Position numbers and translations under genes: made by a program. Below the pieces are notes generated by a model, which worked only from the letters and a program-made list of their open reading frames with translations, was not told where the DNA came from and made no database searches. From Antedon mediterranea (lineage: Eukaryota > Animalia > Echinodermata): a stretch of 64,000 nucleotides of DNA. Where the stretch lies: positions 5,416,101 through 5,480,100 of the forward strand of contig NC_092677.1 of assembly GCF_964355755.1 (NCBI RefSeq). The letters run 5' to 3'. Below, in pieces: positions 24 through 28,225 of this stretch. Position 1 is the stretch's first letter, and every line of letters begins with the position of its first letter.

Positions 24-365
24 ATTTTCAAGCTAATTTGGTGACAGGATTTAACCAGATATCCAAAGAGGGTGATGCTGAAGTGGTGATAACTTGTGAT
101 TATTCACAATTTACTTCTACTGAACCAGATGGCATAAAATGGGATGAGCTAGATGAAGATGGAGTAAATATTAACCCAGGAATTGTGAATGACAAAAACA
201 AAGAAAGTGGACGTTTCAGTTTACACACTGATTCTGCTCATTTTAAAGCTAGCCTGGTGATCTCGCAACCTTTGAGAAATGATTCTCAGCGACGATTTCG
301 ATGTCAGATAACAACAAAAAGTGGCAATATTCAACATTCAAATCCTTCAATTCTAACTGTGTATT
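24..365 (+). CDS. Gene A exon: N-terminal V-type Ig domain
   Basis: tag|AT...T|gtgagt, phase 1-1. VITCDY...IKWDE...GRF...ASLVI...DSQRRFRC...LTVY. Clear paralog of 39027-39356. Confidence 0.9.
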
Positions 366-3300
366 GTGAGTAGATTGTTAAGTTTTGTTCTAATATCAAA
401 ACAGTGATATCCATCGTGCAACTGTACTGTACCTCAATACTGCAAATAGAAATCTTTTTAGCATGTACTCCACTATATTTTAATATAGTTTTAGGAAGGT
501 TCAATGTGGAACTCAATACACAAAATAGAAAAAGAAACAAAAAGTAAGAAACAAAACTATACCAGGTTTCATGATTTTTACACTGAAAATGCATTCTTAT
601 TTATATATTTTTTTCCTTTTGATAATCAGACTTGGATAGACCACTTGTCAATGCCTCAGAGAGTGCGGTCTACGAAGGTCAATCAGTGACCTTTACTTGT
701 AGTAAACCTGATGGTGATCCTATTCCTCACATTGCCTGGTATAAAGATGGACAGACAGTCAACACCAACAACACTTCTAGATATGAGATTGCAAATAACA
801 GTTCAGAGACAGTTCTTAAGATTAAATCTGCTACTGAAGAAGATGGTGGGAGGTATACATGTAAAGCAGAAAATGATCAGTTTAAAGGAGATGATGCTAA
901 AACAAGTGAAGGAAGACAGTTGACTGTAATTGTATATTGTATGTAAACAATAATATTGTTACAAAATAATAAAATTACACATTGCCATACAATGTCACAT
1001 ACTCACCACACATATCAATAAAAATATGTTATCAGGGAAAAAAGACAAATAATTTTTCCCCCACACACAAAAATAGTTTGTCCTGCATTTCAAATCTCTC
1101 AGTTTGGTAACTATGATGTCAGCATGTTAAGATGTGAAATTCATGTACATTTAGGGGGAAAATGGATGTTGTCAAAACAATATAGTTTATAGACTATATC
1201 TGATAACTTAACCAAATACAACTTCTACAAAGAAGCCTTTTGCCTTACTGTGTAAGATCTTCCTTCTTAAATGAAATCTGATTACCAAAAGTTTTATAGC
1301 AATCCACCCCAGAACATGCACAGTGGGCAAGAAGATTAATATAGATTTATAAAATAGTTCTGATAGATGTATTAGTGATGTAATTTTCCCCAAAAACATG
1401 AAAAACGAAGATTAATAAAAAAAGACTTTGAATACTATTTCATAGTTTCAATCAAGTTAATCACTTCCGTTAAAAAAACTAATATTTTCACTTATAAGAC
1501 AAAATACACAGTTAAAATCAACCAAAAATTTGACTATTTTTTGCTTTAAATTACTTTTTTTCAGGTAAATAATCTTTTTTTCAATCTACTTTTTGCTCAA
1601 AGTGTATCATTGAACTATTATGCATATTTAACAAAAACATTTAAGAAAATTATTTGTTCAGGGGGACAATATATCTTTAAATTCAACAAATTTTTCTAAA
1701 AAACTAAAACTAGTTAAGTTAATATAACCACTTGTTGGCGGATAAACAATTAATCCAAACGCACTGTACATGCATGTCACGTTTGTGCAGATAGCCTTGT
1801 CCAAAGTGATGATGAGTTCAAATCTAGTTTACATTGACATTAGCTGATCTTGTCTTTTTTTTTAGATATTTCTTTTACATCTAAAGATGGCATTGCAACA
1901 TGTACAGCAGAGGGCTATCCTAAGCCATTATCAGTATTGATATTGCAAGATGGAGAAGTGGTTAAGAAAGGAGAAAATACAGCAACAATAGAAATTAATG
2001 ATGAGATATGTCAATCAACTTTTACATGTCATGCAGAGAATGGAAAATTTAATGACACAATAACACTAAAGAACTGTAATGCAGGTAAATTTATTCATAC
2101 AGTGTACTGGTTTTATTAGGTGATCCGATCTACCAAGTGGATAACCTATTGTATTTGTAAGCAATCCTTTCTTATTAATTTTTTCACTCTCTTCACACAT
2201 CATTATCTCAACACATCATGTGTGTTTTGAATTTAGTATTCACTTGTTTCATTAGATGAATATAAAGTATTGTAGATCAGATTAATTTACATTTAGCTGA
2301 TATTATCTCTTTTTTAGATATCACTGTTACTTTTACATCTGAAGATGGTATTGCAACCTGTACAGCAGAGGGCCATCCCAAGCCATCATTTGTATTGATA
2401 TTACAAGATGGAGAAGTCGTTAAGAAAGGAGAAAATACAGCAACTATTGAACTTTCTATTAAGATGTGTCAATCACATCTTACATGTTTTGCAGAGAATG
2501 GAAAACTTAATGAAACAACAACACTGGAGAACTGTAACACAGGTAATACTGTATAACAAATTTGTTAAACTTATATTATTAAGTGGTTTAAAATTGAATA
2601 AAATTATCATATCAGGTCTGGAAAAACAAAGCACTTTATAACATGTTGCATGTGAGAGTCGACATACGCAAACTATTGCTACGTAAATATCTTTGATTTT
2701 GAGATTTTTCTGTGTTAAAATAAACCCTTTTTTTTTCACTATAAAGCAAACAATCTGACTGCATGCATCCCATATGTTGTTGCCTTAATTTAAACATAAA
2801 TGGTAAACATTGTTAAATGCTGGTTGTACAATATTACTGTTTAGTTCTCATTATTACTCAGTATGGTATCACAGTTATTTCATGGTGTATAACAATACAG
2901 TACTAACTTTACTGTAGCAATAACAATATTTTTTACATATAATTTCTAAGTAACCTTGTGCTAATACCCATTCACTTTGGCAGAATTTACTGGAATTGAT
3001 TGAGTATTTCTTTAAAATCACTTTAAAACTATTAAACCACATACTACACTACACATACACACTTTTATTGGAAACAAATGAATATAATTGTGTGTAAAAT
3101 TTACATAACATTTTACAAATCTTTTTAAATGCTATCGTGTGGAAATAAAATTGTTATTTTTTTAAACATTATTGGCACATATTTATATTAGTTTTTATAT
3201 ATCCACTGTACAATACAAATCTTTACACAGTGTCAGATGTTATAAACTTACACAATGATATAAAATAAAATTAAGAAACAAAATCATTTAACCAGATTTC

Positions 3301-6300
3301 AATATTAGACATCTAATACAAATTTATTATAAAAAACATTCCTAATACTGTACAAGAGCAATTAGAGAGTTGTAACCTCCACCTAGAGTAAAAAGAAACT
3401 GTGGTTTAAATGTGGTAAAGATCCGTCTTGTAGTTTTGCCTATGTAAAATAATAAATGTCATCCAAAATTGAGATCTTGGTCTGGATTGCCTCCAAAATT
3501 TAATGGAGTCATCCATGACCAATATCTATCTGTGGTTTAAATTTGGTCTTTTATTTACACACACACAGATATTGAAAATATAACCGCCTAGTAGGCGAAG
3601 GTAATAATAATGTTTTCCTGTTGATAATTAGACTTGGATCCACTTCTTGATGCCTCAGCAAGCACTGTCAACGAAGGTCAATCAGTGACCTTTACCTGTA
3701 GTATACCTGGTTATCCTATTCCTTACATTACTTGGTATAAAGATGGACAGACAGTCAACACCGACAACCCTTCTAGATATGAGTTTGTAAATAACAGTAC
3801 AGAGTCAATTCTTAAGATTAAATCAGCTACTGAAGAAGATGGTGGGAGATATACATGTAAAGCAGAAAGTGATCAGTTTAAAGGAAAGGATGCTAAAACA
3901 AGTGAAGGAAAACAGTTGACTGTAATTGAATATGGTATATGTATTATTATTATTGTTTTAAAAAATAATATAAAATTACACATTGTCATACAATGTCAGC
4001 ATCATTCATGATGGATATCTTCCTTGGTATATAAAATCCGATAACCAAATGTTTGAAAATAATAGGATCAGATTTATTTCTTCTGTGTGTGAATCTCTTA
4101 TTAAAACCAAAAACACTTTTTTTCTAAAATGTTTATAACTTTGCTCAACTTACGTCGTGAGGTGTTTTCCCGAATGATCGCACCATTAAAATGGGTATCA
4201 TCAACTACTGTAGCATTCATTTTCCCAACAATCATCCATTTGTAGCAGGCCTACAGTACCACATAGCTTTTTAATTGCATTTTACCATTTACTTTTAATT
4301 TGATTATTTATACATCTTCTATAAAATCTTTTTATTTAACCTCACCCTGACTTTACTTTCTTTTTTTAAGAATGTTAATTAACAGCAAACCACAGTAATT
4401 CTATTAATCCTAATTGGTCAGATAAGATGGGCCCAGCCTAATATTACTATTCACTGACCATAACAAACATTCCTTTCTCAACTAGCATCTTAGCATCTTT
4501 ATCAAATATCGTATATTGTATAATATTATCTATTTATAGAGAATCCTCACTGATTCGCTTGGAATAAATTACATATCTTACTTTATACATTTAGTTTATT
4601 TTACCATTGCGCTAACAATCATATACTAAAGTGGTGACCCTCAACTTTCTTTTACTGAACTTAACTTATTTATTAACTTAATTCATAGAAGTACTGATGA
4701 AGAAGTCAATCTGTGGCGACCATAGAATGGACCGGAGACCTGACTTTCTTCGACTTTTAAATAATAGAAAGTTTTGAATAGTTTGTTAGGATTTTATGTA
4801 AGATTGATAATTTCAAAACTAATAGACATTTTTCAATGAAAATGAAAGTTTACTTCATATCAAAAGTACAGTGATAATACTATACTACTTTCAATTTTTA
4901 ATTAGTTTGAGGAAATGACTTTAATTGAGGTTTATACCTCTTAAAAATAAATTTGTTTCTGCCAACTTACAAATTTAAAACAGCTGCGGATTGATGGCAG
5001 ATAAACACCAAATAAACTAGATGCATGATAGATTTTCTGGTTGTATAATATGCTATTTAATCAAACCTTTTGAAATAATAAAAAAAGAGTAAACACCATA
5101 ATTAACCAAGGTGTAATCAATTGCATGTCCCTATTATTTCAATCAACATTCATTTCTCAATTGAGAACATTTTGAAAAGAAATATTTCTGGCACATTGCT
5201 TTTGAAAAAAAAAAAACAATTCATACACAGGCATATAAGCGTATCTTTATAGAGATAGATTAATTTACTTGACATTAGCTTAACTTATTTTTTTTTTAGA
5301 TATTGCTGTTACTTTTACATCTGACGGTAGTTTAGCAACATGTACATCAGAGGGTTATCTCAAGCTATCATCAGTATTGATATTACAAGATGGAGAAGTG
5401 GTTAAGAAAGGAGAAAATGCAGCTACTATAGAAATAGATGATGAGATATGTCAATCAAATCTTACATGTTACGCAGAGAATGGACATCTTAATAAAACAA
5501 CAACACTAGAGAACTGTAATGCTGGTAAATATACTAAATTTATTATTGGTATTCGCTCAACCAAATGGGTTCTTCTTTCAGTGGGATTCATGGTGTCAAG
5601 TATAGTTTACTCAACATTTGTGTTTACACAATATCTCGAAACGAGAGTAATAGCATTGTTACAACCATTCTCATTTCGAGCTCATGTCTCATGGACGTCG
5701 CTTTCGATGCCCAGCATGTAGAACAAACCGGAAAAGAAATTCATTTTTGCCAGTGGCCATCCAACTCTTAAATTCTTTAACTTTGACTCTTGTTATATTG
5801 TACTGTGTATTGTGTATTGTGATATTTTTGTATATTTTGTAAGATCATTTTAATCCAGACCTTTTTATTTGAATTGCCCCGTGTGGGATGATTAACGAAT
5901 TTTGAATTGAAATTCACTAATATCATCATTTTAAATGATATATGCTTCTACAGGTTATTTCAATGAAAAGTGATTCATTAAACCTTGATGGAGGTTTTAA
6001 ATTGTTTTTTAATCATAAATGTATTTCCATAGAAATGGTGTTACTGTATATCATAGGCCTATATATAATTTATAGGTCTATGGTAATATCAATTCTGATA
6101 ATATATTTTTTATTGATAATTAATAGAAACAAGTACAGTTACACAAGAAGATTCAGGATCACTGTTCATCATCCTGATTGTTGTTGTGATTTTTGTTTGT
6201 CTGTTCATATGGTTACTGATTCTTGTTTGTAAGTAAAATGTACCCCTGAATTATTACTTTCTTAAGGTCACTTCTGATTGTATTGTAAATATTATTCACA

Positions 6301-9300: not shown

Positions 9301-12300
9301 GCACTAGTATCGGACTTGTGGTTTAGGAGGAGATAGAGGAAAACATTTTGGCTTGTGCTATTATAATACAGATATACAAATAATTTATAATTTATTTAAT
9401 ATCATTCCTTTAATGAGTTATTTAATATCATTTACAATTTTTATTTCAGATTTTATGTATTACAAGAATATTGAGTGGAGCAATACAGATATTGATACAG
9501 TAACAGTTGAAGGTGGTGAACCAGTTGTGATGAGTTTTAAATACCGTCCAAGTATTGCAAGGATCAAGACAGTTGAAATAAAGAAAGAAGACAAGGTGAT
9601 TGGTTCAAATCAACAGCAATTCAGTAGTTGGAAAAAAGTCTGTCAGTTTGTCTGTTATTGCTGTGCTTACTTTTGTGGATTTTTTTGTATTGAATACTGT
9701 AACAAATCATGTAGGTTGTATTGGTTTTTGTTATTAAATATTTTAAAATTTATTTTGTAAATCTAATAGTTATTATGTGAGTTTTTGCTTCATGTTAATT
9801 TAGTATATAATGATAATATTAAATAATGGTAATATTGCTAAAAGTACAGTGAGCAAGTAACAGACATAAACCCCAACAGAATCACTGCTCTTACTCCATC
9901 ATTAATACCATTAAAATATACAAGATAATTAGTCAATATTTTTATTTCAATTTCATAGTTGCACCCCGCAATGCAAATGACCGCAGGTGAGTTTAGTTAC
10001 ATTGTATTTTGATTTATATGGAAATTTCAGTTTTAATGAATAATGAAACCTTTATTGAAAATCATAATATATTTATTTGGGATTGAAATTATGGAATTAG
10101 TTTTATTAGTTTAAAATGGTATATTATACAAATAATGAATGGCTATGAGTGAAATTATTTTTTACATTTCATGAATATGAAGAGGCAGCGCTTCAATTAT
10201 AGATGCGGAGTAGAATAATTATAGACTGTGCACACTACAGGTTGATCGAACGTGGTCAGTTAACAACAGCCTAGCATGCTCGTCACTCACTTGTGTAACA
10301 AAAATTAACATGCAGAACAAAATTGCAGACTTACTCGATTTACATAACAATAATATATATACTGTATATATTTATCTTGAATACAAAAGTATACAGTAAT
10401 ATTAAAGAGGGGGAAAATAAATAATTTCAGGTCAACAAATCATTATTGTGTTAACCCTACAGCGTTGGAAGTGGGGAAGAGTATAGTGCAGAGGTCCCTG
10501 TTCTTGTAGTTTAATATTATTATCTTGTATTGTGTTAACCCTACAGCAGTGGAAGTGGGGAAGAGTGTCAGATGATGGTGAATAAAAGTACTAAACAACA
10601 AGCAGCAGTCTCTGAATCAAAACAGGTTGGTTTAATAAAACTTATCAACTAATTTCAATTAAAATCCTGTTTTTCTTGAATTAAAAGTAAAACAATAAAT
10701 TTTGAGTTGACAAAGATAAAGAAAAAAAGCGACCTGTTTTACATAAACAAATTTCAATTATATATTTTTATTCACAACTTATTTAAACTTATGTTAAGTA
10801 ATTTATTTCCAATGTTTAGTTAAAGATTTATGTTTGCTTGCCATATCTTGGGCACAAAAGGATAACAATTGGTTTTCAACTTAGTTGGTTAAACAAGAAA
10901 TGAATGAATAAAATAAAAATCAGTAGGTCTGTTGGTATATCTGATAAAAAGTTAAAAAAATCAGAAACAACAACTTCTTATTGACGATGTTGTGCACACG
11001 CACAAAAACAGATTAAAGCAAGTATTTTAGTATTTGAAGTCCTCATTTCCATTGGTCTTATTTATATGTTGTTTGTTTAGAGTCGCTATCCAATCGAGTT
11101 TGAACAATACCGTGAAAGCCCCAGTGGTCTAACGGTTAGGACATCTGCATATCAAGTAGGCGGTCCGAGTTCGAGTCTCGGTTGGGGCGACTTTTTCTCA
11201 TTCTCACAGATTTCCTCATCTTTATCGTTTCAAATTAATTAATTAAATTTCAGTATATTACCGGGCGGTTTAGAATTAATGTTCTATGCCTGATTTGTTT
11301 ATATATATATATATATATATTTGTCTATTATTACCACCAAATGTCTGTTCTTGAATTGATTCAGTTGTATTTATACTATTTGTATGTTTGTATTAACTAC
11401 AAATAAATAGAGTTGTAAAAGTATATTTGTTTATTTATTCACAGAGAAGTCCTGATGGTGATGATGAAGATAGTAATCTTTTAGCAGAACGTCAAGGAAC
11501 ATCTGGTGTTAATGTGAAGGTAAACTTTGTTATTATTTTCTAGTATACTTATAAAGCTTCTGGTAGAAGAAATATTCTCTCTTTAATACTATTTATACAT
11601 TTCCAAAAATGAGTTAAAAAAAAAGAGAAAAGAAGTGTACATTAAATTATCATTATTAATTATTTTGCCATATAGTTCTATATATTCTAATAGATTTTAT
11701 TTGTTTATTTTTATTAATTGAACACATAGGATTGTTTTGTTAAAGCATTTTGTGGCTATTCGACTATATTTGCCCTTATGTTTTTTATGTATTATGTTAT
11801 TTTTTGTTTAATATAGCAAATGACTCAAGCAGGTAATGGTTAAATGTGTTTTTATATACAACAAAGCTTATATTGTATACATTGCTTACTCCTTCTGTAC
11901 TCGCATGGACTTTTTCAATCTCATCAATTTGACAAATGTCACTAGGTTTTTCTTTTCTTCTTTCTCTGATTGTTGGCTGGGTTGAGTTCTATCTCATAAA
12001 CGTTTTGAGGTTTAGAGTCTTTACTAACGGTAATTGACTAGCTCTCTGGCATTTCATTGTCTGGCATTGTAATTTTCACATGCTTACTTATTTTTCTGTC
12101 TTTGTAAAATTGAAAAAAAAACACCATTAATAGCTGATAGTTACCTGAATTTGGTCAACTTCTACTACAATATGTTATTTAATGCAAAATTAGTTTGTTT
12201 CTGTAGATAGTTGCATTTATACTGTATCATTAACTTATACTTCAAAGCAGTGATTTGTAATAGCCAGGCTGGATGGCAATCTATAGTGTTATCCATGGAG

Positions 12301-15300
12301 AATTGATTCTCCATGGAGAGGGAACCAACAAGATGGCGGCTGCAATCGACCAATCAGATATGCCCTACGCAGTACGCACTACTACGCCTGTGTTGAGCCT
12401 ATCTGTGTGAGAACGATATGCAACGCAGCACGTTAAGCGTATAAACGCAAACGCATTCTATATGATCCTCGTATACAAAAAATGCTAGATTACCAAGAAA
12501 TTATTAATTCTCATTATTGCGATTAACAATAATTATATTTAATTTTATAAAAACTTCACGGTGCTTTTGCAAGAATATGTGTTGTAATTTATGTGGTCAT
12601 AATGTATTATATTAGATTATTATTTTTTATATTAAATAATGTTTTTGAACACATTTACGGCTGCCATCTTGTTGGTTCCCCTCCTGTTGGAATCACTTTT
12701 TAGTCTGGAGTACGCCCTCTAGTGTTCTATTACATCTCTCTGACTTCAAGTCATTGTTTAAAGGTGTCAATAGTTACTATACATTTCATTTATATTATTA
12801 TATTTTAACACACTAAATGTATTAGCCATACCACTGATTCCATCACAAACACTTGTACCTCCTTCTGCAATTAAAATATTTCCTTTGATAATGTAAAGTA
12901 ATATTGTGTACCTACCAGCTTTGTGAAGAGTGGAGAGCTTTATTACTTATTCTTGAGTGAATGTTATTCTAGTCTGTGATTTTTTGTCATCACTTTTTTT
13001 AACCACTGTTACCATACTTTGTATGGTATCAGAAAATGTTACTGTGTAAATGTGCATAATGAAAGATCATGGAATTTGACTATATTTAATGTTTTAAACA
13101 TAAATTAAATAAATCCGTTCCCTGACTATAATATTTATTTATTTATAGATTTCAAAGGCCATACACAAATAAGTAATAAATATCATATTTTTGTTATAAT
13201 ATAAAATTATTATTACCAACCATTATTACATAAACTGATTTTATATTGATGTTAACTTATGCCAGTAGTATAGATAGATTTATGTGAAAATCCAGGGACA
13301 ATCACATAAGCCCAATTCCAGATGTGGTGTACTAGAAAATTTATCTAATACTATCTCACATTAGATACCAAATTTATTCGAATAAATGTCCATCCACCCA
13401 TCCCACTTTCAATATTAATCTTACTCGGAATTAAGGAGCATAAAAGGCACTTTCTGTGGAAACATAATAAAGTGAGTATAAACACTGGTTGTAAGGCATA
13501 TTTTAATGTCAACATTGTCAAAATGAAGGTTAACAGTAAGTATAATTTCAATTCACGGAACAAAAATGAAAAACTTAAAAAACTGTTAATACTGAAACAT
13601 TATGTCTACTTCGATCAAATCAATTGAAAAAATTAGTTGCCTATTTAAACTTCATATTCATAAAAATCAGACACATAGGACCTTTTAAATTACCAAAATA
13701 CAGTTAAATAGCAATAAAAACAATTCAATGTATGGTGTACAGTAGCCTAGAATTCTATGACGTCGTATGAGTTCGTCAAAGCCTAACCGCAGATCTAACA
13801 AAGTCTGTTACGATAGCCTATCTTGGCAAGTTGAGCTCAGCGATTTTACTTTCGAATTGATTATGTTAGGAAATTAAATTTACATGTCTGGATTCAAATT
13901 ACATTTCCTTAGCAAATGGTAGAATCAGCCTAACAATTTCAAATCCTGTGAGAGCTGATTCTGGCGAGTACAACTGCAGTATAGAGGGCAGTAGACAGCA
14001 GCGTCCAGGTGTCAACAATTTGACTGTTTATTGTAAGTTTTATTTCTGAAAATGAACTTGTATAATTCTATATAAATACAGAAAAGAATCATAAAGATAA
14101 TCTAAAAAATCTATACAGCAAAAATGAAAAAAAAGTTATTTTTTATCCTGTTTTATAAACAACATTTAATATACTTAGATCAATTATACAGTAAATCATG
14201 CTTTTAACAACAATTTTCATATTCTTACTTAGTTTTCTGTCTTTGTAAAATTGAAAAAAACACCATTGACTCAGCAGAACAAGGTATACGGGAGACACTT
14301 TTATGTATGCCAAATGGTCGATTTAGACCTCTAATAATTTTCTTTTTAGATCACAAAAACAAAATAAACATTTTTTTATGGATCTTCATAATAGTTATGA
14401 TACTTTCTTTGGCTTTGTACAATGCATGACAGATTTTATTTTAGATAAGCCAACTTGAATTTGTTCTATAAATATCATTGAATCCATTGTTTGTGTAATA
14501 TTTTAAAACTATATATATATATATATTTATAAGTATTGTACAATCCAATTACTGTGGTATATGACTGTCCGGGAAACAGTGACGGATCCAGGTTATTAAA
14601 TATAGATAGGGCATCATAAAAATTATAATTTGTAAACATTTAAAATACTGAAAGATACTACACAGCTGTAATTTTTATATTTCATTTATAATTTTAAAAT
14701 TGTGTACTTCAAAATATGCAAATTTATATGTTTGAAGGGATTGAGATGGAAAATCCAGAGTACTCAATCAAAGAAGGTATCAGTAATTTTGAAATGAAGT
14801 GCAGATATAGACCATCAGATATGCCATTAACAGGTTACAAGTGGAAGAAGATTAAGGAAGATGGCACAACAGACATTGAGGATTGTTCTGAAGATGGCAG
14901 ATTTGAAGTAACAAAACAAAATAGCATTCTGTCTTTGAAGATAAAAAATGTTATACTTGGTGATTCTGGCAAATATCAATGTGAAGTGAAGCCAGTTGAT
15001 GGAGAAAAGAAGCTGGAAGATACTACACAGCTAACAGTTAAGAAACGTAATATTTTTACAGTATTTCATCTACATTTATTTTGAGAATTACTAAACAGTT
15101 CTATGCTAGCTATTAGAAACTAAACTAAACTAAACTACAATAAAAATCCAGTTATAACAAAATAACTTATAAATCCTGTAACCTACAGAGAAACAAATCA
15201 AATTAGAGCATGGTTCAGAATTTTTGAGCATTTTAAAATTGTTGTTTGCTGCTCACATTTGGTATGCCTAGAATAAAAATGTAGCATAAAGTTAGTAATG

Positions 15301-18300: not shown

Positions 18301-21300
18301 CTTTTATCGATGGTAGTTTTTTAAAAATGCTTTGTTTTTTGGTTATTCGCAATTGTTAGCAACATAATACATGTATATTGTTATTATAAATTGACAATGT
18401 ATCAAATCAAACATAAAATGATTTATTTATCTGCTTATCCGTTTGCAATAAAAATTGATATTTAAATCCCATTTATTAACTATAACTTAAGATTTACAGG
18501 GCCTAGCCATCATGAGGCAGACGATCAGGCACTTGCCTTGTCTTAAATTTCAATTTTCACCACCCACCTCAATTTCCCAGCAGAGATCGTCATATTTTAT
18601 ATTAATACTTAAATTTTAAAGCATCTTTGCCTCGTCTGTTTTTAACCTCTCACTACGGTCTTGTTTGGTTTGACTTTGGCTATCAAACAACAGGACACTG
18701 AGCTTGTCTTTCCAAGATAGGCTATTGTAACAGACTTTGATCTGCGGTTAGGCTTCATCGAATTCATACAAATCCCTCGAATTCTAGGCTGTACACCATA
18801 TACGTCAAATTATTTTTATTGCTATTTAATTGTGTTTTGGTACTTAAGGTCCCATGTGTTTAATTTTTAAAATTTAATTTGATGGAATTATCAGTTTTAT
18901 AAATTGTTCATTGTTCATGCTGTTGATTGAATTTATTGTGTACTGTTAACCTTCATTTTGACAATGTTCATATTAATTCAAGGCAAAATGATGTGTATAC
19001 TCACTAATGGCGTTCACATCGAACTATGGCTAGTTAATTTAACTAGATTATCTGTATGATCTCGCCATAATTTGGATGTGAACGCTCAATTATGTCCGGA
19101 TGATGGTTTTTTTCTGGAAAATTATTGCTGCTTGAAGGATAGCCAGTTATTTTATGACTTAGGGTAATCCAATTAACAACCCAGCAGGTGGCCTTCAGCC
19201 TCATTTGCACCAATGAGATTGAAGAATTTTTGAACCCAATTGACCATTATTATGGTCATTTTAATATTTAACATTTGAATTGCAAAGAATATGCTTATTC
19301 TTCTTCATTGTGTACCCCATAAAATGTCCTAAAAATTAAATGAACTATATCTGACGAGGACAGAGGTCAATAGAAGATAAGAATAGAGTAGAATACAAAA
19401 GACAGAAAGTAAAATGACCAATTGTTTGTAATCAAAAGTTAAAAGTAAACAACATACAGGATAAATAAAAAAAAGAGATGATTTTATACATAAAATAGTA
19501 TTTAAAATCTCCAATACCAGGTTTTTATGAAATTGAATTAACTAGACATAATTGTACCAAAGTACGGGATTTGTCAAGGTTAGTCCAATTAGTAGAAAAT
19601 TGTTAAATCCACTTCTTCTAGACATAGTTCCATGTGAACCCCACTGTAACTGTATTGTTATGTTTTTTTGTAGCTATGACACTGGATGATTGTATTGTGA
19701 AACTAGGAGATAAAGCTGTTTTAACTTGTAAGTATGGACCTGAGACGCTGGGGAAAGTCCCTGTTAATTGGTATAAGAAGACTGTTGATGGAAACAAGAT
19801 GATATTTACTTCTGATGAATCACAACAGAAGAAGACAAAAAAAGTGTCTGAAAGATACAAAGCAACTTATAATGATAATGAAACAAGTTTGGAGTTTGAG
19901 AAAGTGTCAATGATTGATGCTGGAGAGTACAGATGTGAATTTAAGGCCACAAAAGGAATCATTGGCAAATCAGCACAATTGTGTGTATACTGTAAGTACA
20001 TTTTAAAATATCTATTTTTCCATGAAACTAAAGTTGAGTGTATTTAAATAATTAGTATGAACTAAAGCATGTGATCTAAATGCTCATTTTACCCTAAAGC
20101 ACCGGAAGTCATTTTAAAGTAATTTAATTTTGATTACTTATGGTGTGAAACATTTAGTAATATTTAATGTTTTTTTTTTTTTTTTCAATAGTTGACGTGT
20201 TTACTGCTGAACCAGGTAACACATATAGGTAATGTAAATGTTTTATTTGGATCTCATAATCTGAAACATAAATTGTGAAACAAGCAGCATCAAATCATCA
20301 CAATTTTTGTTCTTTTGTTTTGCCATTTATACATATTTGTATGTTCTTGAATATCAGTTATTTTGTAAATTCATCTCATTTTTAATTAAGTTTTTGTGTA
20401 TATTTTTTTCTCTTATTTCACAGACGTCCTACTGTAGTCTTTACAAAGACTCATATTCTTGTATTTTGTGTGCAAAACAACTCAAATGTAACAATGAAGA
20501 AAAGAGAATTGAATGTAAAGAGTGAGACTGAATGGGAAAAACCAATACAGATTTTACATGAAAAGAATACAAGGTATTGGTATAATATTCCCTGAGAAGA
20601 TATGACAATAAATAATTCAAATTAAAAATTAAATTGAATATATTCCATTGCCCAGTCAATTGTGTGTATAGTACAATATCAAAATTTAAATATTTTTTAA
20701 AAGAGAGAAAACAATTACAGATATTATCTAAACTTGGTAAAACTGATCTTTAGATTGCTTGATCAATTTATTTTTTAAAATAAATTTTGTTTACAATAAC
20801 CGTTGAATTTGTTCTGTTTATTATCTATTTACTCTACAGCTTACATAATCCAGTACCAATTGTGACAAAAACAGGAGGACAGGTGATTCTAATATGCCTT
20901 GCACAAGATAATAACACACAAAAGAGAAGGATAATGAAGATGGATAGTAAGGATAATGGAAAGACTTGGATAAAATCACCATTTAACAGATATTCTGGGG
21001 ATGAAATAGACATTCTAAGTAATTATAAATTAGATTTGTATTATGTTGTTTAAAGTTGTATATAGTCATGCGTCATGACGTGCATATATTCTTTTTGATG
21101 TACAGTATGCCATCCTATGACCTGATGCATATATGCTTATACAGTAGTAATGAACTTGTAGAGAATATACACAGTATACACTATATCAATATAGTGTAGT
21201 ATACTGTAGGTGAATTTACAGGACCCAAATATGTTCTTTTTTCTTTTTTTGGTATGATGACCTTATACCTAGTTTATTGCCTAGTGTGTAAACATTATTG

Positions 21301-24300
21301 ACATAATTTCATTAAACATCGACACAGTACAACTCTTCTTAACAACATTTTTTCAATCTTCTATCAACTAAAAGTCGTAGTTAGTCACGCCTCGGGTCAC
21401 ATTCTATGGTCACCGTACAGATAGGCTACTACATCAGTACTTCTATGAATGGATGGCTAGTTGGTGACAAGAACGCTAGTTGGTCATACCCAGTACCGTT
21501 TTGATTTTACGATCATTCGGGAAACCACCTCACGATATTATAAAAATTAACAAGAAGATGACCATTTTAAATTTGTATAACTTTGACAGAAGAGATGAAA
21601 AAACTGCCTTTTAAATTCAACTGGCCATTTTATAACGTCACAACATCTGATAGGCACAATTTTTATATGAATTCATCAAGGTCACCTTTAATTCTGAAGA
21701 GCTATATGTTAAAATATACAGTGTAGGTGATATTACACGATCCAAGTTATTTAGATTGTTAGGTGTGATAAATTCATCAAAATGAAAATAGTGGTGAACT
21801 GAAGTTTTCATGTAATTGGTAAACAAAATCTCTAGGTAGTGATCATTTTATTTATTCTAAATGTTCACCTAACAAGTAATTACATTGTGTTTTTCAGGCC
21901 TGGGTGGTGGTGTGTGCTTAGATTCAGGAAAAATGGTTGTTGCAGGAGTTTGCAAGATAGACAATGAGAGTAAGAATATTATTAAGAGATACTTTCACTA
22001 CTAACTTTGACAGTTGTCATTTTATTTCCCTATTGTTTTTAACATTTGCGCTTTTTTGTCATGACTGAACATATTCTCACATATTCAAATATAAATTATT
22101 TTCCAATCTTTTTTAAATGCATTTGCTTGACTCATCCTCTTGCCCAACTGTAATAAACTAGAAATAAGTAGGTCCCATTATTGATGATTGCTATTAAAAA
22201 TAGTTATTGTTTAATTTAGTCCTCATATACATTTTCTTGTATACACTTTAAAGCCTCATTCCCTAGGTTTTTTAGAACTAATTTAAGGTCACAAACTACA
22301 GTACATTGAATGTAAAAATAAATACTATATGGTCCTATTGCGATAACTAATTGTGAAAAATAAGTCTATTCTAATCATTTAAGCGGCTCACTATAAATCC
22401 CAAGATGCATTGCATGCGGATTGATATTTTCATTTTTCTTCTGTGGTTCACCCACTCGATCGGACGTTAAGGCCAAAACAAAGTAAAGAATCGTAACTTT
22501 TCAGCGAAAATACCGTATTTTCCCCAATTTGTATCACCGAATTTTGGCAAAAACATAAAATAACATCAGACTAGGCCTATAGCTGGCTTACGATGTTCGT
22601 AAAGTTACTGCTGTTTACCAGCTAGTCAGACAAAACTAGGCCTATCTAGGCTAGGCCTAAAGATTGTCCAGGGGAGGATGAAGGCCTCAGCATGCAGTCT
22701 CCAATGCCATCTGTCTTTCGTCTTGCTGTACCAATTGGTACTGCTCCAATATTGTTGGAGTTGTCTCTCCAACGCTTTCTTTGTCTCTGCTTCGCTTTGC
22801 TTTCCCGTCATTGGTGTCCACATTGTTAAGGCTTCACTCCAGCTGTTATCCTCTCTTCTAGACACATGACTTGCCCATGTCCACTTTTTTCTTTTCACAG
22901 TTTCAAGTTTGTCTTGAGTATCAGTTTTCTCTCCTTCTCCATTTATTGGTGTTCCTATCTTTGTAGGTGATGTTCAGCATACTCCTTTCCATATTGTGTT
23001 GTGCTGCTGCTAGTTTTTTTTTTTTCTCCCCTTTTTTGCTCATTGTCCAGGTTTCTGCTACATATGTCATTGTGGGGAGAATGCATTGGTCAAATATCTT
23101 CTTTTTTAAACATATTGGAAGATTCCCTTTCATTATTTCGCTATGTCAAAACAAATGTATCAAAACAAGATCCTTTGCTAAGGTGTTTGAGTCTTTTATT
23201 GCCAAATGGATTATCGAGGGCATTAGTGAAAAACTGGATGCTAAGTAGTATGATAATACTAAAGGTTCATTACTGTACATTACATCATAGATATGTTAAA
23301 TTTCTTGAAGCCTTGAAGCCAAAACAATCTGTTACTAAGGCTTTCGACAGAGTTAATCATACAATTATCATAAACAAATTAATTAAACTTGGCGTCAGGT
23401 TTTCCATCGTTCCCCTCATCTGCAGTTTATGTGGAAGAACCCACAATACTAAACTTGAAAAACATCTCTCACCAAATCAATATGTTAAGTACCGTAGGGA
23501 ACCAAATTGGGACCCATCTTATTCTTAGTTTTAGTTAATGATGCGGCCACTGAAAGTCACAGGGGCCAAATTTTTGGATGACCTGACGCTAGGGGAAGTA
23601 CCAAATGTGGGGCTCCCTCTGATTTCCAGAGTAATATCAATAGTGTCAGTGAGTACATCAAATGATGTTGTACCAAAACCAGCCAAATGCCAAATTATTG
23701 AATTCAATTTTTCAAAGCAACGGCAGATTAATTTAGCCTATAATATCAATAATTTTGACCTTCCAATAGTTAAGGAGTTAAAGATACTTGGTGTAAAAAT
23801 TGGGGTTCCAATGTTAATGATATAGCATCAAGAGCCTCGCGCACCAATCGGTGATCTGATTATGGGTTTTATATCATACCTGTATCAGACCTGTTCTGGA
23901 ATATGCCCAGGTTTGGCATTCATATTTAAGTGTACAACAATCCAATAAAATAGAAAGAATTCAGAAGCGAACTTTAAGAATAATTCTAGGCCCGGGTTAT
24001 GTTAACCTTAGAATTTGCCTTAGAATATGTGGTTTGCCTCCGTATCCGTAGAGAACATCTTTTTCTTAAGTTTGGCAAGAGCCTTTTAAAGTCCATAATA
24101 TTTAGGGATATGTTACCTCAATATACCCAGCTAACAATTTTACGTTGAAAAAACATTATAAAAACATATCCATTTGGTTTTGAAAACGTTTAAACCATAT
24201 GTTTTAAAAACGTGAATTTGTGAAGTTTTGCGAGCATTAAAATAACATATTTTAGAATATTGTAACAAAAATACAAGGTTTCAAAAACGTATTTGTTTGA

Positions 24301-27300
24301 TTTTGAAAAAGTTGTAATTATACGTTTTAATAACATGAAGTTTTGCGAACGTTAAGAAAACGTTTTATTGAAACGATTTAAAAACGATTTTTAAACGTAT
24401 AAATAATGCAATATTTTTCCAATAAAATGTTAAAAAATATGTTTGTGAAGTTTTGAAAACGTTTAAAAAAAATATAAAAACGTCTTTGTGTTAAATAATC
24501 TTTAATTTTATTTTTTTTAAACGTCATAAACAGGTTTCCTTTATCTTGTCGCTGTACATGACTTCAAACGCATAAGTGTTTTTAATCACCAATTTAATGA
24601 ATACATCGATAATCAAAATATTATAATTCTGCACAATCTGTAGACGTTCTTTGCCTCTTTTATATGTTATGTTGTTAATGTTTCACATCAATATTTTGTC
24701 TAAAACAAAGCTTAACAAATCGGCTAAGGAATAATTGACAATTAAGTCATTGTTTTAACTTAACTTAACCATTGTCGGTTCCCTTTATGTTTTAGAAGAC
24801 TAGACGTACAGTGTAATGTTGTCACCTACAGTACATCTCCTACATGAAAGAAAATTTTAACAAATATGAATGAGTAATAATCAAAGTAATGGGAAAGTTA
24901 AGTCATCCACATCATGTTCGGAACAAATGTAATCGCGACATTTAATGAATAATAATAATAACAATGCAGATTTCTAGAGCGCGTACATCATTGTCTCAAG
25001 GGTCTATTCTATTGATTTGTGGCTCTGGTCATGATTTTGTTCCACTGTAGATTGGAATAAACAATAATATTATTCAACTCTTATTATGAAGCTATAATAA
25101 GTGTAACCAATAACTGGTTTAATTTGAACTATCCAGACATTTTCAGAATAGCGTGATAATGATGTAGTCTAAACTTACTTTTTATACTATACGATATGAG
25201 GAAAGTTTATTGCAATTTCAAAATACATTAAAATTGAAGTTTAACAAAAATAAATATGCAAAAATATATAAATCGTAGGCATACAAATATAAGTAATTTT
25301 TAGAAAAATACATGTACATTTAAGCAAAATACTATATAGGCCTACAAGACTGGACATTATAATTAGAAAAGGACAAAATTAAAAACGACAAAATACAAAA
25401 TAAAAACTCTTAATAAAAACTCTTGTCAGAAAGGACACCCTTCTAAATAGAAGAGGTTTTTTCCTCGCCTCAACTAAACAAAACTCAAAAAAGAAAATAA
25501 TCATCTATAAATAACAAAAATTATAATTTTAAATACACATATTATCTTTAATAGAAATAAAATGTAGAGCCTACCAAACCATGTGCCTTGTCAGATGTAG
25601 TGAAATACAATATACTTAACTTAGGTAGGCCAGTAATAGCCACTACACCATTGTTTGTATTCCACACTCATGAGGTCATTTAGTTTCAGTTTAGGCCTGC
25701 ATGCACATTATAACGTTTAAAAATCGTTTTTTATACTTTTTAAATTAAATAGAATTACAATGAGAATTGTTGCAAATATAGTTACAATAATTATGTAACC
25801 GTTTTTTCCTTACAATGAAATAGTACATTTCAAAATGTTACAATTAATCTGCATTGAAAATGCAATTTAAACCATCGTTAATAAACCGTTAAAATTTTTT
25901 TGCGAGTTGCATATTTTACAGTATTAGAACATTGGCTTATTATCAATATTTTAGCATTGGCCTGTAGCGTTTTTGTTATTTTTTTGTAGTTTTATTGTCT
26001 TTATTATGTAAAATGAATTTCAATTTTAAGTGGACGAATAAAATTTCTTGAATCTTAAATCTTGAAATTATACAAAGATAATTGTTGGTGATGTTGCTTT
26101 GTAGAAAGACTATTTGTAATGACAAAAACTGATGATAGTGATTTCTGGGATACAATTACTATTCCTATACCAGCAGCTGCTACCTTAGGAGAACATACAA
26201 AAGTAAGACTTTTTTTTACTAAATTTTACTTAAAGACTAAAAGAAGTCTATCATATTGGATTGTTATTGATAAAACTTTTTTGACATTTTCTATTTAGTT
26301 TTATTTGCTTCCATTTGTAAGCTGAGTGAATATACAATGAAAGTATAAAATAACTCTACTGTAAAGGGTCTTTCACACCTGTTTCGGCACGGTTCCGGTC
26401 CGGCGCCGGAAAATCCAATCGAACTTCAATGTTGCATTTTCACGCGGCTATGCGCCACTCGATATATATATGGAGCGTCGTGAAAACGAAAAATTGATGT
26501 TCGATTCGCCAGACCGGAACCGTGCCGGAATAGGTGTGAAGGGTCTTTCAGGCAAGTAAAACATCAATATTACAAATTTAAAAACTCTTCGTGCACACAC
26601 TTCCCAAAAACGATTTTTTTATATGTTTGTGTATGCCTCCATGAACTGTAACTCTCATTGGATACCTCTCAGTAGACTTGTAGAAACGAGGTTGAACTGT
26701 TTACATGATTTAGTTCTCATGTTCTAAATGCACCTTTGTCATACAATGTGATTTTGTTTATTAGGTTGTTGAATATTCTAAGGACAAAGTTTACATCAGC
26801 TGTTCATTGGAGGATGGTAGTAAGCGGTTACATGCATACAGCAATGATGGATGTAAAACATTTGGAAATATTGAGAATGCAAATCCAAAATGCGAGGTAT
26901 CCACAATATGTCAGTTTGTATCAGCTGGAAGCTAAATTAAATGTTGTATAATACATACATAATTATTTATTAATACCAATCATTCAAATACAGTATAACT
27001 ACCGTCCTAGAGTAAATTTAATTAATTAACTCAAATAATAAAATAAACATTTTATTTAATGAAAGTAATTACATTGATGAAGTAGAAATACTGACATATT
27101 TGTATACATACAGTATATACAGAACACAACCCCAGGTATACATCAGATATATCATATTTTAATCCAAATTGTGTTAAGGGTACCCTAAATTAAGAAAAAA
27201 ACATGTGTACAGTTTGTTTAGTCTCAAATCAATCTTTTGAAAGTGTAAAATATTATTTAAAAAAAATCAAGAACTAACCTACTTCAATCAAATTTTGTCA

Positions 27301-28225
27301 TTGACTATTCTGCTTTTCCTTTGAATTTGAACTTTTTTTTACACCTAAACATTTATTGTTTTGGATTTTGTGTTGATGAAAATAAATGAATGAATGAATG
27401 CGCTGCTTTCACAGCATTTATTATCAAATATAAAATATTTAAAATATGTTGTTTTGTACACAGAGAAAGCTCTTAAAATTAAATGTAAAAAACATCAAAA
27501 ACACGATAATGAAAAAACACATCAAAGATACAAAAAGGATACAGCCAAGAGAGAAAATTCCAATAACAACAAATTGTCATGATGCTTACAATGAGACACA
27601 GTTTATAGTTATACTAATCTTATCTAGATGTTTTGCTGTTATATAGAGTTATAAATTGTAAAAACCAAAAACTACAGTATTAATATTAAATAATAAGACT
27701 ATAAGAGTATGGTGTATTATTATACAAAAAATATTTCAGAAGTTGAAAGATCGACTGTCATAACTCTTCTTTCAAATGAAATAATTCTCTCTATTCAACA
27801 AATTATTTGTTTTATAACACACCTACTGTTCTAAAATATTTTTTTATTTAATTAATCCATTTTAAATAATTGTACAAGGCTAGTCCAATTTCATATAACT
27901 TCTTGTTTTAAATTGTATCATTATCTAGGGTGGTATTGTACGTTTACCAACCAAGAAACATGGACTCTACCAAATAGCAATGGCAAGTCACGGAAATGAA
28001 ACAAATAAGGATCTTACACTTTACTTAAGTGAAGATGGTTGTAAAACCTGGTGTCAGTTTAACACACTAGGTGCAGTGAATGCAGAAGAATCTGACCTAG
28101 CTTATAACAGTGTTAGAACAGGGAAAGAAGAAGCGATGGAAATAGTGTGTGTTTACAGTTATGGATCAGAAACAGATGGTTATAGCATTAGAATGCTTAG
28201 TATAACCAAGGCAATCAGACACTAA
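24..28225 (+). CDS. Gene A (5'-partial): multi-exon IgSF membrane protein, Ig x6 - TM - half-Ig/Cys-rich - linker - Ig x4 - sialidase-like beta-propeller
   Basis: Exon model: 24-365, 630-938, 1866-2084, 2318-2542, 3632-3934, 5300-5524, 6127-6228, 9450-9710, 9959-9986, 10547-10625, 11445-11519, 11817-11832, 14738-15046, 16278-16586, 17747-18061, 19674-19991, 20192-20228, 20424-20573, 20840-21018, 21898-21969, 26105-26202, 26765-26896, 27929-28225. All have AG/GT boundaries and matching phases, with no internal stop (4400 nt). Linkage across 6.2-14.7 kb is inferred, so this could be two genes. Confidence 0.6.
630..938 (+). CDS. Gene A exon: I-set Ig domain
   Basis: Phase 1-1. EGQSVTFTC...PIPHIAWYKDG...LKIKSATEEDGGRYTC. 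Confidence 0.92.
1866..2084 (+). CDS. Gene A exon: short 4-Cys Ig-like domain (copy 1)
   Basis: Phase 1-1. ATCTAEGYPKP...ICQSTFTCHAENG...NC. Confidence 0.88.
2318..2542 (+). CDS. Gene A exon: short 4-Cys Ig-like domain (copy 2; ORF track shows a different frame)
   Basis: tttttag|AT ATC ACT...ACA G|gtaata. DITVTFTSEDGIATCTAEGHPKPSFVLILQDGEVVKKGENTATIELSIKMCQSHLTCFAENGKLNETTTLENCNT. Confidence 0.85.
3632..3934 (+). CDS. Gene A exon: I-set Ig domain (duplicate of 630-938)
   Basis: Phase 1-1. Nucleotide sequence is highly similar to 630-938, including the acceptor gataat(c/t)ag|acttgga. Confidence 0.88.
5300..5524 (+). CDS. Gene A exon: short 4-Cys Ig-like domain (copy 3)
   Basis: Phase 1-1. 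ATCTSEGYLKL...ICQSNLTCYAENG...NC. Confidence 0.82.
6127..6228 (+). CDS. Gene A exon: transmembrane segment
   Basis: atag|AA ACA...GTT T|gtaagt. ETSTVTQEDSGSLFIILIVVVIFVCLFIWLLILV. Confidence 0.85.
6712..6755 (-). ncRNA. Degenerate minimal hammerhead-ribozyme motif, probably from the Penelope-like element terminus
   Basis: Minus strand reads CTGATGA-T-GGGC-TAT-GCCC-GAAA-AATGTC: core boxes with a perfect stem II. It lies downstream of, and on the same strand as, the Penelope-like ORF. Confidence 0.55.
7757..9240 (-). mobile_element. Penelope-like retroelement remnant (RT + degenerate GIY-YIG region), frameshifted
   Basis: DKGGATVVWRRD, FYMLPKIHKTNSPGRPIVS, GTKMGPNFACLFMG, KRYIDD, YLNYNSSHP..CKNAIPYSQLVRLRRLCS, GTFKCNRNRC, spread over several frames. 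Confidence 0.9.
9450..9710 (+). CDS. Gene A exon: N-terminal half of an Ig-like domain fused to a Cys-rich hydrophobic segment
   Basis: tttcag|AT...TCA T|gtaggt, phase 1-1. TVEGGEPVVMSFKYRPS (cf. SVEGGEAMIRF and CRYRPS in later exons), then WKKVCQFVCYCCAYFCGFFCIEYC. Confidence 0.65.
9959..11832 (+). CDS. Gene A: four small hydrophilic linker/tail exons (9959-9986, 10547-10625, 11445-11519, 11817-11832)
   Basis: Phases chain 1-2, 2-0, 0-0, 0-1 with good splice sites. FAPRNANDRSSGSGEECQMMVNKSTKQQAAVSESKQRSPDGDDEDSNLLAERQGTSGVNVKQMTQA. Confidence 0.6.
11118..11189 (+). tRNA. tRNA-like sequence with anticodon ATC (Asp); probably a tRNA-derived repeat or pseudogene
   Basis: Cloverleaf: acceptor GCCCCAG/TTGGGGC, D arm GTCT/GGAC, anticodon arm TCTGC-ATATCAA-GTAGG, T arm CCGAG-TTCGAGT-CTCGG, followed by T5. 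Confidence 0.6.
12300..12720. mobile_element. MITE-like element with inverted repeats
   Basis: gggaaccaacaagatggcggc (~12320) versus gctgccatcttgttggttccc (~12660). Confidence 0.55.
13490..13850. repeat. Dispersed repeat family
   Basis: gatagcctatcttggcaag(t/c)tgagctcag and its flanks recur inverted at ~18695-18975 and partially at ~28240-28290. Confidence 0.65.
13870..14032 (+). CDS. C-terminal half Ig exon (alternative exon or relic)
   Basis: ttag|GAA...TAT T|gtaagt, phase 0-1. ...GRISLTISNPVRADSGEYNCSIEGSRQQRPGVNNLTVY. Confidence 0.55.
14738..15046 (+). CDS. Gene A exon: V/I-type Ig domain
   Basis: FEMKCRY...YKWKK...GRF...LSLKIKNVILGDSGKYQC...LTV. Phase 1-1. Confidence 0.88.
15544..15706. 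mobile_element. Short MITE
   Basis: TIRs cagggccgtatgcagg / cctgcgtacggccttg, with an internal poly-G run. Confidence 0.6.
16278..16586 (+). CDS. Gene A exon: Ig domain lacking the B-strand Cys
   Basis: VRLPFSF...TLYKK...SRYQC...AYLEIRNVVPGDAGEYIC. Phase 1-1. Confidence 0.88.
17747..18061 (+). CDS. Gene A exon: Ig domain lacking the B-strand Cys
   Basis: EGGEAMIRFN...GRY...LEISNVQPSDAGEYRCCV. Phase 1-1. Confidence 0.88.
19674..19991 (+). CDS. Gene A exon: V-type Ig domain
   Basis: GDKAVLTCKY...VNWYK...ERY...SLEFEKVSMIDAGEYRC. Phase 1-1. Confidence 0.9.
20192..28225 (+). CDS. Sialidase/neuraminidase-like (GH33, BNR/Asp-box) domain of about 320 aa in 7 exons, catalytically degenerate
   Basis: Spliced motifs occur in NEU order: TYRRP (F/YRIP), HNPVPIV, SKDNGKTW, LGGGVCLDSGKMVV, TDDSDFW, SNDGCKTF, PKCEGGIV, LTLYLSEDGCKTW, EESDL, VCVYSYG. 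Stop TAA at 28223-28225. Confidence 0.85.
22660..23135 (-). mobile_element. RTE-clade-like LINE 3' fragment
   Basis: LKKKIFDQCILPTMTYVAETWT...AQHNMERSMLNIT...KKWTWASHVSRRED. Confidence 0.85.
23160..24120 (+). mobile_element. Degenerate non-LTR reverse transcriptase (CR1/L2-like)
   Basis: AKVFESFI, KAFDRVNHTIIINKL, GTKLGPILFLVLVND, KFLDDLT, RPVLEYA, ERIQKR, with frameshifts. Confidence 0.85.
26363..26548. mobile_element. Palindromic MITE (Harbinger-like end sequence)
   Basis: ttcacacctgtttcggcacggttccggtccggcg versus cgccagaccggaaccgtgccggaataggtgtgaa. Confidence 0.7.

Follow-up and report, generated by a model that had tools for sequence, protein, structure and literature searches.

Can a sialidase fold serve as the tail of an immunoglobulin (Ig) receptor and, if so, does it remain an enzyme, and on which side of the membrane does it lie? 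The sialidases of animals are known as free-standing enzymes in which six catalytic residues are fully conserved (PMC3431349). The window, by which we mean the whole 64,000-nucleotide stretch of Antedon mediterranea DNA analysed here, raises this question: the original prediction chained Ig exons, a transmembrane (TM) exon and a sialidase-like propeller into one reading frame.

An exon chain from Ig domains to a propeller

We assembled 24 exons in which all 23 introns are bounded by GT..AG and no internal stop intervenes, yielding 1505 residues when exon 13913–14032 is included (Table 1). The chain begins with six Ig domains and a TM helix; next comes an Ig that is interrupted by a Cys-rich helix and a linker, then four more Ig domains, and finally a sialidase propeller. 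The 23-exon chain as first proposed (11519>11817>14738) is likewise open, with 1465 residues and its sole stop at the end; the exon that it overlooked, 13913–14032, matches Pfam V-set (E 1.5e-4) and encodes the C-terminal half of such an Ig. Of 18 exon stretches put through Pfam, 10 match Ig families, and one propeller exon matches BNR_2 below cut-off; the short propeller exons gave no Pfam match when scanned singly. Phase agreement is weak evidence for the chain, since all Ig exons are phase 1-1; it is lifted above chance because every exon of at least 23 residues matches a same-order segment of the A. mediterranea models, with best identities of 36–91%.

Table 1. Exons of the receptor gene and a neighbouring paralogue, in window positions
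Feature	Coordinates	Strand	Evidence or remark
V-type Ig exon, phase 1-1	24..365	+	55-61% identity to A. mediterranea models having this exon
I-set Ig exon 1	630..938	+	Pfam Ig_3 2e-18
Short Ig exon 1	1866..2084	+	Pfam scan, exon chain
Short Ig exon 2	2318..2542	+	Pfam scan, exon chain
I-set Ig exon 2	3632..3934	+	Internal duplicate of 630-938, 87% DNA identity
Short Ig exon 3	5300..5524	+	No Pfam match alone
Transmembrane exon	6127..6228	+	Kyte-Doolittle 19-mer 3.68, sole scan window >2
TM end (aromatic belt, Lys), N-half of split V-type Ig, Cys-rich helix	9450..9710	+	73-91% to paralogues, best conserved exon
Linker micro-exon	9959..9986	+	Exon chain, splice scores
Linker exon	10547..10625	+	Cys in place of paralogues' YxxM Tyr (GEEYQMM)
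Acidic linker exon	11445..11519	+	Best donor phase 0; weaker phase-1 donor at 11505
16-nt micro-exon	11817..11832	+	Best-scoring chain: frame differs from paralogues'
C-half of split Ig	13913..14032	+	Weak acceptor; just after repeat insertion ~13503-13842
Post-TM Ig A, canonical Cys-Trp-Cys	14738..15046	+	Weak acceptor; in-frame Met near start
Post-TM Ig B, without B-strand Cys	16278..16586	+	
Post-TM Ig C, without B-strand Cys	17747..18061	+	
Post-TM Ig D, canonical	19674..19991	+	Pfam V-set 2.5e-13
Propeller exon 1	20192..20228	+	Kept Arg (NEU2 R21) split by next intron
Propeller exon 2	20424..20573	+	R41/D46 loop deleted
Propeller exon 3, Asp box	20840..21018	+	BNR_2 E 3.5e-5
Propeller exon 4	21898..21969	+	
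Propeller exon 5	26105..26202	+	His at E218 position
Propeller exon 6	26765..26896	+	Ser at R237 position
Propeller exon 7 to stop	27929..28225	+	No Arg at R304, Glu at Y334
Neighbouring paralogue, 7 exons, 435 aa	36720..39816	-	Signal, V, I, short Ig, TM, short tail; same ectodomain as window receptor

A signal-peptide exon for this gene would have to sit outside the window, on its upstream side. Between 6228 and 14738 we met two signal-like ATG stretches only, both unrelated to the family's signal exon, in keeping with the earlier statement that no such exon separates the TM exon from the second Ig block. The companion statement, that this interval has no clear terminal exon, stands in part: the donor at 11832 outscores 99.8% of GT sites, but read-through of the micro-exon at 11817 stops after eight codons and offers a possible terminal reading. 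AATAAA is too frequent here (19 copies in 6228–14738) to be of use in placing a 3' end.

One receptor gene or two transcription units

The link between the TM receptor and the second Ig block, held uncertain at first, recurs in all seven A. mediterranea gene models that have the juxtamembrane exon: each of them, six genes from a set of seven proteins plus XP_071958852, runs on into the C-half Ig and Ig A. Five of the seven reach the full propeller (XP_071958824, -844, -647, -852 and XP_071957667; all uncharacterised RefSeq entries with the same domain order), these RefSeq models being predictions, all from one pipeline. Isoform differences among the A. mediterranea models fall at the linker junctions predicted from the window exons. 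Another observation concerns the split Ig, whose halves stand 4.2 kb apart: they align as a single V-set domain over 84 columns (hhalign probability 96), and the joined halves score above the C-half alone in 8/8 cases; the N-half by itself scores 6–14 bits, with shuffles reaching up to 10.4. For XP_071958882 AlphaFold folded the ectodomain and TM and not the post-TM part; the split Ig stayed unfolded (pLDDT <50, 12 sequences). We regard it as likely that the window exons form one single-pass receptor gene.

The alternative that survives best is that the window copy comprises two transcription units: one for a receptor with its end in the linker, the other for an Ig-propeller protein, soluble and cytosolic, whose start is in the C-half Ig or in Ig A. 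Judged on its sequence, the linker (11519–14738) is drifted in the window copy and its acceptors are weak: of the 24 in this copy, those at 13913 (-1.0) and 14738 (-1.6) have the lowest scores. A repeat insertion lies a short way upstream, the micro-exon is in a shifted frame, and read-through meets a stop. Two of the seven models with the juxtamembrane exon end before the propeller, and several family models have no TM (XP_071944339-41, three accessions for one protein; XP_071958848; XP_071959374; and every Anneissia japonica model found). We nevertheless consider two units unlikely: the donor at 11832 is strong, the linker is crossed by two in-frame routes, the split Ig requires both sides, and five models cover TM through propeller.

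Sequencing run X5, which is only guessed to be RNA, contains two contigs that end at exon borders (9450 and 14033), and has no depth in several unique intron bins. We do not count this run as evidence for splicing, because no GT-AG joint is among the rows listed.

Side of the membrane

The Ig-propeller tail is most likely cytoplasmic, because there is one strong TM, tyrosine motifs stand behind the TM in paralogues, and the TM-less forms have no signal peptide. One 19-mer per protein exceeds a Kyte-Doolittle (KD) value of 3, the Cys-rich helix being only marginal, and a hydrophobic N-terminus is absent from the TM-less Ig-propeller models. YxxM follows the Cys-rich helix in six of the eight linkers listed (isoforms counted), and XP_071958880/1 carry an 81-residue cassette with three ITIM/ITSM-like motifs; in the window copy we found no ITIM exon, and the YxxM tyrosine is Cys. 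Furthermore, four to seven Lys/Arg residues come after the helix in paralogues, and its cysteines lie mostly on one face. When seven related proteins are pooled, 53 of the 166 Asn ahead of the TM lie in sequons, against 28.7 expected, and 65 of the 374 behind it, against 54.9 expected; the window copy alone shows no such contrast (12 of 38 versus 14 of 55).

If the Cys-rich helix were instead a second TM, the Ig string and propeller would be extracellular and could bind glycans or proteins outside, which comes nearest to the original prediction. In paralogues this helix offers a segment of 19–20 apolar residues with KD 1.6–2.0 and a summed insertion energy of +0.7 to +1.8; two of the four post-TM Ig domains of the window copy, A and D, keep the canonical Cys pair, and its 14 post-TM sequons compare with 7.8 expected. 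The receptor AjNLRC4 is reported to have two TMs (PMC8699970). This topology strikes us as quite improbable: behind the helix come a basic cluster and Tyr motifs, the membrane would separate the halves of the split Ig, XP_071958852 has no helix yet keeps the rest, the TM-less forms are without a signal peptide, and carboxylate-binding arginines are lost.

A sialidase fold without its catalytic residues

The propeller of XP_071958844 was modelled by AlphaFold at pLDDT 90.9, and its best structural match is human NEU2 (Z 38.2, rmsd 2.6 over 321 residues), with the six blades of a sialidase propeller. It has one canonical and further variant Asp boxes and a RIP-type motif, Y-R-R-P. BNR_2 scores above cut-off in six of the seven first homologues; PDB sequence searches with family members gave weak sialidase matches only (best E 0.002).

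Residues R21, R237, R304, Y334, E218 and D46 are essential and fully conserved in animal sialidases (PMC3431349). R21 is the sole one kept in all 11 family members: E218 has become His and R237 Ser or Thr in 11/11, R304 and Y334 are absent from every member, and D46 is kept in one; the acid/base loop is deleted in nine, the window copy included. Nine members have Glu at the Y334 position, where the two A. japonica copies have Ser or Cys; all 11 share N86 and the new His. As one of six essential residues is kept throughout, we predict that the propeller is a pseudoenzyme, and sialic-acid sensing is doubtful. The proposal of glycan sensing through the sialidase site is not supported: every member lacks two of the three arginines that bind the carboxylate, together with the Tyr/Glu pair, ten of the 11 also lack the Asp, and the domain most likely faces the cytoplasm.

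Could the site have been rebuilt into that of an active glycosidase, with Glu at the Tyr position and His at the Glu position? Enzymes of the related GH93 fold use a Glu for catalysis, and the invariance of R21, N86 and the new His, the prevalence of that Glu, and a last propeller exon that is 70–78% conserved to most Antedon paralogues would all fit. We think this very improbable, given that the Glu is replaced in both A. japonica copies, that the acid/base loop is deleted, and that the cytosol has few glycan substrates.

As to the origin of the predicted pseudoenzyme, a quick first tree held 68 rows (11 family members, the first 55 matches of 300–480 residues, and two more), 29 of which make up a careful tree. 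In the latter the propellers are sister to crinoid NEU3/4-like sialidases with support 97/95, most outgroup rows being unnamed, and the AU test does not reject a position outside the animal NEU rows (p 0.073). This suggests that the propeller groups with the crinoids' own NEU2-5-type sialidases. A bacterial origin is disfavoured by the same placement beside crinoid NEU rows, at that AU value.

A multi-copy crinoid family

The supposition that an Ig receptor fused to a sialidase fold is lineage-specific was borne out: we found it only in two crinoids. In A. japonica the Ig-propeller part is present, all models found being TM-less and partial. The neighbouring minus-strand paralogue at 36720–39816 has a signal peptide and, in its short tail, the Tyr motifs VIYEEP and HYCEQL, and is without the split Ig and the propeller; models XP_071958824, -647 and -880 begin with hydrophobic N-termini. 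DNA run X1 contains up to 14–17 variant contigs per single exon position. Ectodomain dN/dS is 0.23–0.69 in 10/10 pairs and, being below 1, shows no diversifying selection. No Pfam match to B30.2/SPRY was obtained in 12 full or partial models scanned, nor to NACHT in the window exons or scanned models, and the juxtamembrane exon and tail had no usable ESM Atlas match. Literature search listings showed no description of this family.

Neutral exon shuffling in a repeat-rich tandem cluster, with the window copy decaying, would account for the internal exon duplications, a broken linker duplicate at 10461–10514, the retroelement remnants in introns and the drifted linker, but we think it very improbable, since 11 downstream exons are free of stops and frameshifts at 40–80% identity to paralogues, the Ig-propeller fusion is common to two crinoid genera, and dN/dS is below 1.

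Proposed working and significance

On balance, we favour a receptor that crosses the membrane once and belongs to a multi-copy family of crinoids. Its first Ig domains are predicted to be extracellular; its tail, likely cytoplasmic, comprises the split Ig, four Ig domains and a sialidase fold that would serve as a binding surface rather than an enzyme. Exon chain, domain order, recurrence in paralogues, fold and residue losses are directly established; the remaining steps we infer. The ectodomain would recognise a surface ligand of microbial or self origin. The Cys-rich helix may be palmitoylated and rest against the inner leaflet, and the loop within the split Ig would carry exchangeable tyrosine motifs (YxxM, ITIM-like) to which SH2 proteins are recruited. 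The propeller, kept off the membrane by the Ig string, would be a sensor of cytosolic partners or a scaffold for them. Paralogues that combine this ectodomain with a short tail may provide other outputs, as in paired-receptor clusters.

We also infer an immune function for the family. As an unlikely extension, crinoids might have evolved a cluster of paired Ig receptors into which a decoy is integrated. The decoy would be an inactive copy of the crinoids' own cytosolic-type sialidase on an intracellular Ig stalk; it would bait or sense pathogen-derived molecules and signal via tyrosine cassettes spliced into the split Ig. Such a system would parallel, in an animal, the integrated domains of plant NLRs and the inside-out sensing of butyrophilins.

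Crinoids are the sister group of the other echinoderms, and to our knowledge their immune receptors are almost unstudied; this family offers concrete candidates for immune or self-recognition receptors. In crinoids a sialidase appears to have been duplicated, inactivated (as predicted) and expanded as the tail of an Ig-receptor family. It is unusual for a surface receptor to have Ig domains in its cytoplasmic part, and for a V-set domain to be interrupted by a signalling loop; both features are predicted here. There is also a warning here: annotations such as 'sialidase-3-like' (e.g., XP_033114277) probably do not denote enzymes.

Comparison with known systems

Dead catalytic folds are retained as binding modules in RPTP D2 domains, receptor pseudokinases and inactive trans-sialidases, the last of which keep the Arg triad. 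Unlike receptors with pseudoenzyme tails, the crinoid family would have a glycosidase fold on the predicted cytoplasmic side, and unlike inactive trans-sialidases it has not kept the triad. Siglecs and the paired ITIM Ig receptors (SIRP, CD300) have a V-set N-terminus, clustered paralogues, alternative tails and ITIMs. The crinoid family shares that N-terminus and the clustered paralogues with alternative tails, its ITIM-like motifs being confined to one paralogue isoform; it differs in its long folded tail, and the window copy has no ITIM. With the NEU2/NEU3/NEU4/NEU5 sialidases (GH33, Pfam BNR_2) the propeller shares the six-bladed fold, Asp boxes and RIP-type Arg, crinoid NEU3/4-like proteins being nearest, but it has lost five of six essential residues, sits behind Ig domains and a TM, and is encoded in seven exons. 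Butyrophilins (IgV-IgC-TM-B30.2) join a tandem Ig ectodomain to a borrowed globular domain, which lies in the cytoplasm and senses there (PMC10533412); the crinoid receptors would match this plan, given their predicted cytoplasmic side, whereas their tail consists of Ig domains and a dead sialidase in place of B30.2. An echinoderm likeness, one of architecture, is the sea-cucumber Ig-TM-NACHT membrane receptor AjNLRC4, which has Ig outside and a co-opted cytosolic module inside (PMC8699970): the crinoid receptors would share this plan with a different module, a sialidase fold and no NACHT.

Exon chain and recurrence of the architecture

The window consists of AT-rich animal DNA and contains no N. 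In-silico splicing confirmed that the 23-exon chain of the original prediction is open (1465 aa), but one exon had been missed, which encodes the C-terminal half of a V-type Ig domain; its inclusion gives 24 exons and 1505 aa, with GT..AG at 23/23 introns (see table). Because a shared phase among 1-1 Ig exons proves little about a chain, we searched for relatives. A search with the last propeller exon gave 51 candidates, of which 7 proteins proved to be relatives; all 7 are uncharacterised RefSeq models from the feather star Antedon mediterranea and lie on a single chromosome-size contig. The TM-linker region found further A. mediterranea models, two of them on other contigs. For window exons of 23 aa or more, best identity to A. 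mediterranea models was 36-91%, so a related crinoid is the likely source of the window. The juxtamembrane exon is present in seven gene models: the C-half Ig and Ig A follow in 7/7, so that the passage from TM receptor to downstream Ig block, originally considered uncertain, recurs in every one, and the full propeller is reached in 5/7. Isoform differences sit at junctions predicted from the window exons (e.g., a shift by one residue, or a cassette of 81 aa); isoforms of this kind in the RefSeq pipeline rest on transcript alignments.

Searched against 1.84 billion proteins, a propeller profile gave 10 matches below 1e-30, the named ones being from A. mediterranea and Anneissia japonica. The A. 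japonica models found are of Ig-propeller and half-Ig-Ig-propeller types, none showing the TM part. In the DNA run X1, single exon positions yielded up to 14-17 variant contigs, which is not a copy number; the family is therefore multi-copy in the window's organism too. Bearing in mind this recurrence across A. mediterranea models, we judge the predicted union of Ig receptor and sialidase fold to be real, and consider it very likely that the complete Ig-TM-Ig-propeller architecture exists in the family.

Features of the window
Feature	Position	Strand	Remarks
Long gene, 24 exons	24-28225	+	six Ig exons in the order V, I, short, short, I, short; TM; first half Ig plus Cys-rich helix; linker of four exons; second half Ig; Ig A-D; propeller of seven exons
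Juxtamembrane exon	9450-9710	+	TM end, N-half Ig, Cys-rich helix
Broken duplicate of linker exon at 10547	10461-10514	+	
tRNA-Asp-like element	11118-11189	+	anticodon ATC; very high summed depth in two sequencing runs; likely a tRNA-derived SINE
Micro-exon	11817-11832	+	linker
C-half Ig	13913-14032	+	missed exon
Ig A-D	14738-19991	+	
Early propeller exons	20424-21018	+	36-55% conserved (Antedon paralogues)
Last propeller exon	27929-28225	+	70-78% conserved (Antedon paralogues)
Neighbour paralogue	39816-36720	-	convergent to long gene; complete, 435 aa: signal, V, I, short Ig, TM, short tail
Open frames (399, 117, 141 aa)	44666-47908	-	no Pfam match; by eye, resembling a transposon-derived or vertnin-like gene
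Decayed retroelement-like frames	8233-9213 (-), 22629-24120, 40698-41264 (-)		in introns and upstream of neighbour paralogue; nothing in Pfam at E 0.01
Inverted duplication	49355-56396		2-kb, 97% identity
Second inverted duplication	58860-61554		0.77 kb

A sialidase fold without most of its catalytic residues

The propeller model, built from 83 sequences (pLDDT 90.9), best matches human NEU2 (Foldseek E 6e-17; Z 38.2 and rmsd 2.6 across 321 residues); the corresponding Z is about 36 for bacterial sialidases and for NEU1. The nearest relatives outside the family are crinoid and hemichordate NEU3/4-like proteins, one of which, aligning end to end with NEU2, bridged the numbering. According to PMC3431349, R21, R237, R304, Y334, E218 and D46 are essential and show full conservation; PMC5669518 agrees on what D46 and the Y334/E218 pair do. 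Of these six, R21 alone is retained throughout the 11 family members: His replaces E218 and Ser/Thr replaces R237 in 11/11, R304 and Y334 are absent from all, and D46 is kept in 1/11. True sialidases in the same alignment retain these residues wherever the column is covered. With five of six gone, catalysis and normal sialic-acid binding appear unlikely, and glycan sensing through the sialidase site is not supported.

The family forms one long-stemmed clade, sister to crinoid sialidases (support 97/95; also in a quick tree); placement outside the animal rows missed the rejection threshold of the AU test (p 0.073). Uneven conservation among propeller exons may point to constraint acting on a single face, or else to gene conversion.

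Topology of the tail

A single strong TM is present in every protein, its end being encoded in the juxtamembrane exon. The Cys-rich helix that follows would make only a marginal TM; with Cys mostly on one face and basic residues next, it fits a palmitoylated helix on the inner leaflet. S-acylation is cytosolic, and NEU3 has no signal peptide (excerpt of PMC5482835). Downstream of the helix, most paralogues carry YxxM, and one paralogue isoform has three ITIM/ITSM-like motifs. Helix and linker sit between the two Ig halves, which together align as a single V-set domain; the N-half on its own matches weakly and is left unfolded by AlphaFold. Pooling over related proteins shows sequon enrichment ahead of the TM (53/166 Asn) and a value near expectation behind it (65/374 Asn), a contrast whose p of 3e-4 is overstated because the sequences are related, and which is not seen in the window copy taken alone. 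A cytoplasmic tail, with Ig string and propeller, is the likely arrangement.

The linker of XP_071958881/XP_071958880 alternatively includes the 81-aa cassette, carrying VTYADL, IKYVDL and TSYFEL, which might serve as an inhibitory-motif switch through splicing. Three family proteins (P0008/P0010/P0015) have a tandem 8-residue Ser/Pro/Thr repeat inserted in one post-TM Ig domain.

One transcript or two

The window copy's linker has drifted: the YxxM Tyr is replaced, no ITIM exon was found there, and the micro-exon's frame in the best-scoring chain is new relative to paralogues. The acceptors at 13913 and 14738, sited after a repeat insertion, are the two weakest in the gene. Two in-frame routes reach the half Ig (11519>11817>13913 and 11505>11817>13923); the originally proposed 11519>11817>14738 is also open and skips that exon. 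Given the TM-less models in both A. mediterranea and A. japonica, a cytosolic Ig-propeller protein made separately is a less likely alternative. The window copy would probably yield a full-length transcript.

The neighbour paralogue's short tail carries the Tyr motifs VIYEEP and HYCEQL; the same ectodomain with a different tail is, by analogy, the paired-receptor pattern. Ectodomain dN/dS is 0.23-0.69, hence constrained and not diversifying on average.

Comparison with known systems

We propose a single-pass receptor whose ectodomain would bind a surface ligand and whose tail would signal via tyrosine cassettes plus a pseudo-sialidase scaffold; an immune role, ligand and partners are putative only. 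RefSeq labels the gene models uncharacterised, 'obscurin-like' or 'sialidase-3-like', and a published description was not found in the literature searched. By the sequence features tested, the family appears to be neither an active GH33 enzyme nor a Siglec. The proposed receptor would resemble butyrophilins (PMC10533412) and AjNLRC4 (PMC8699970) in coupling Ig domains outside the cell to a co-opted module inside it, but the family is neither of these.
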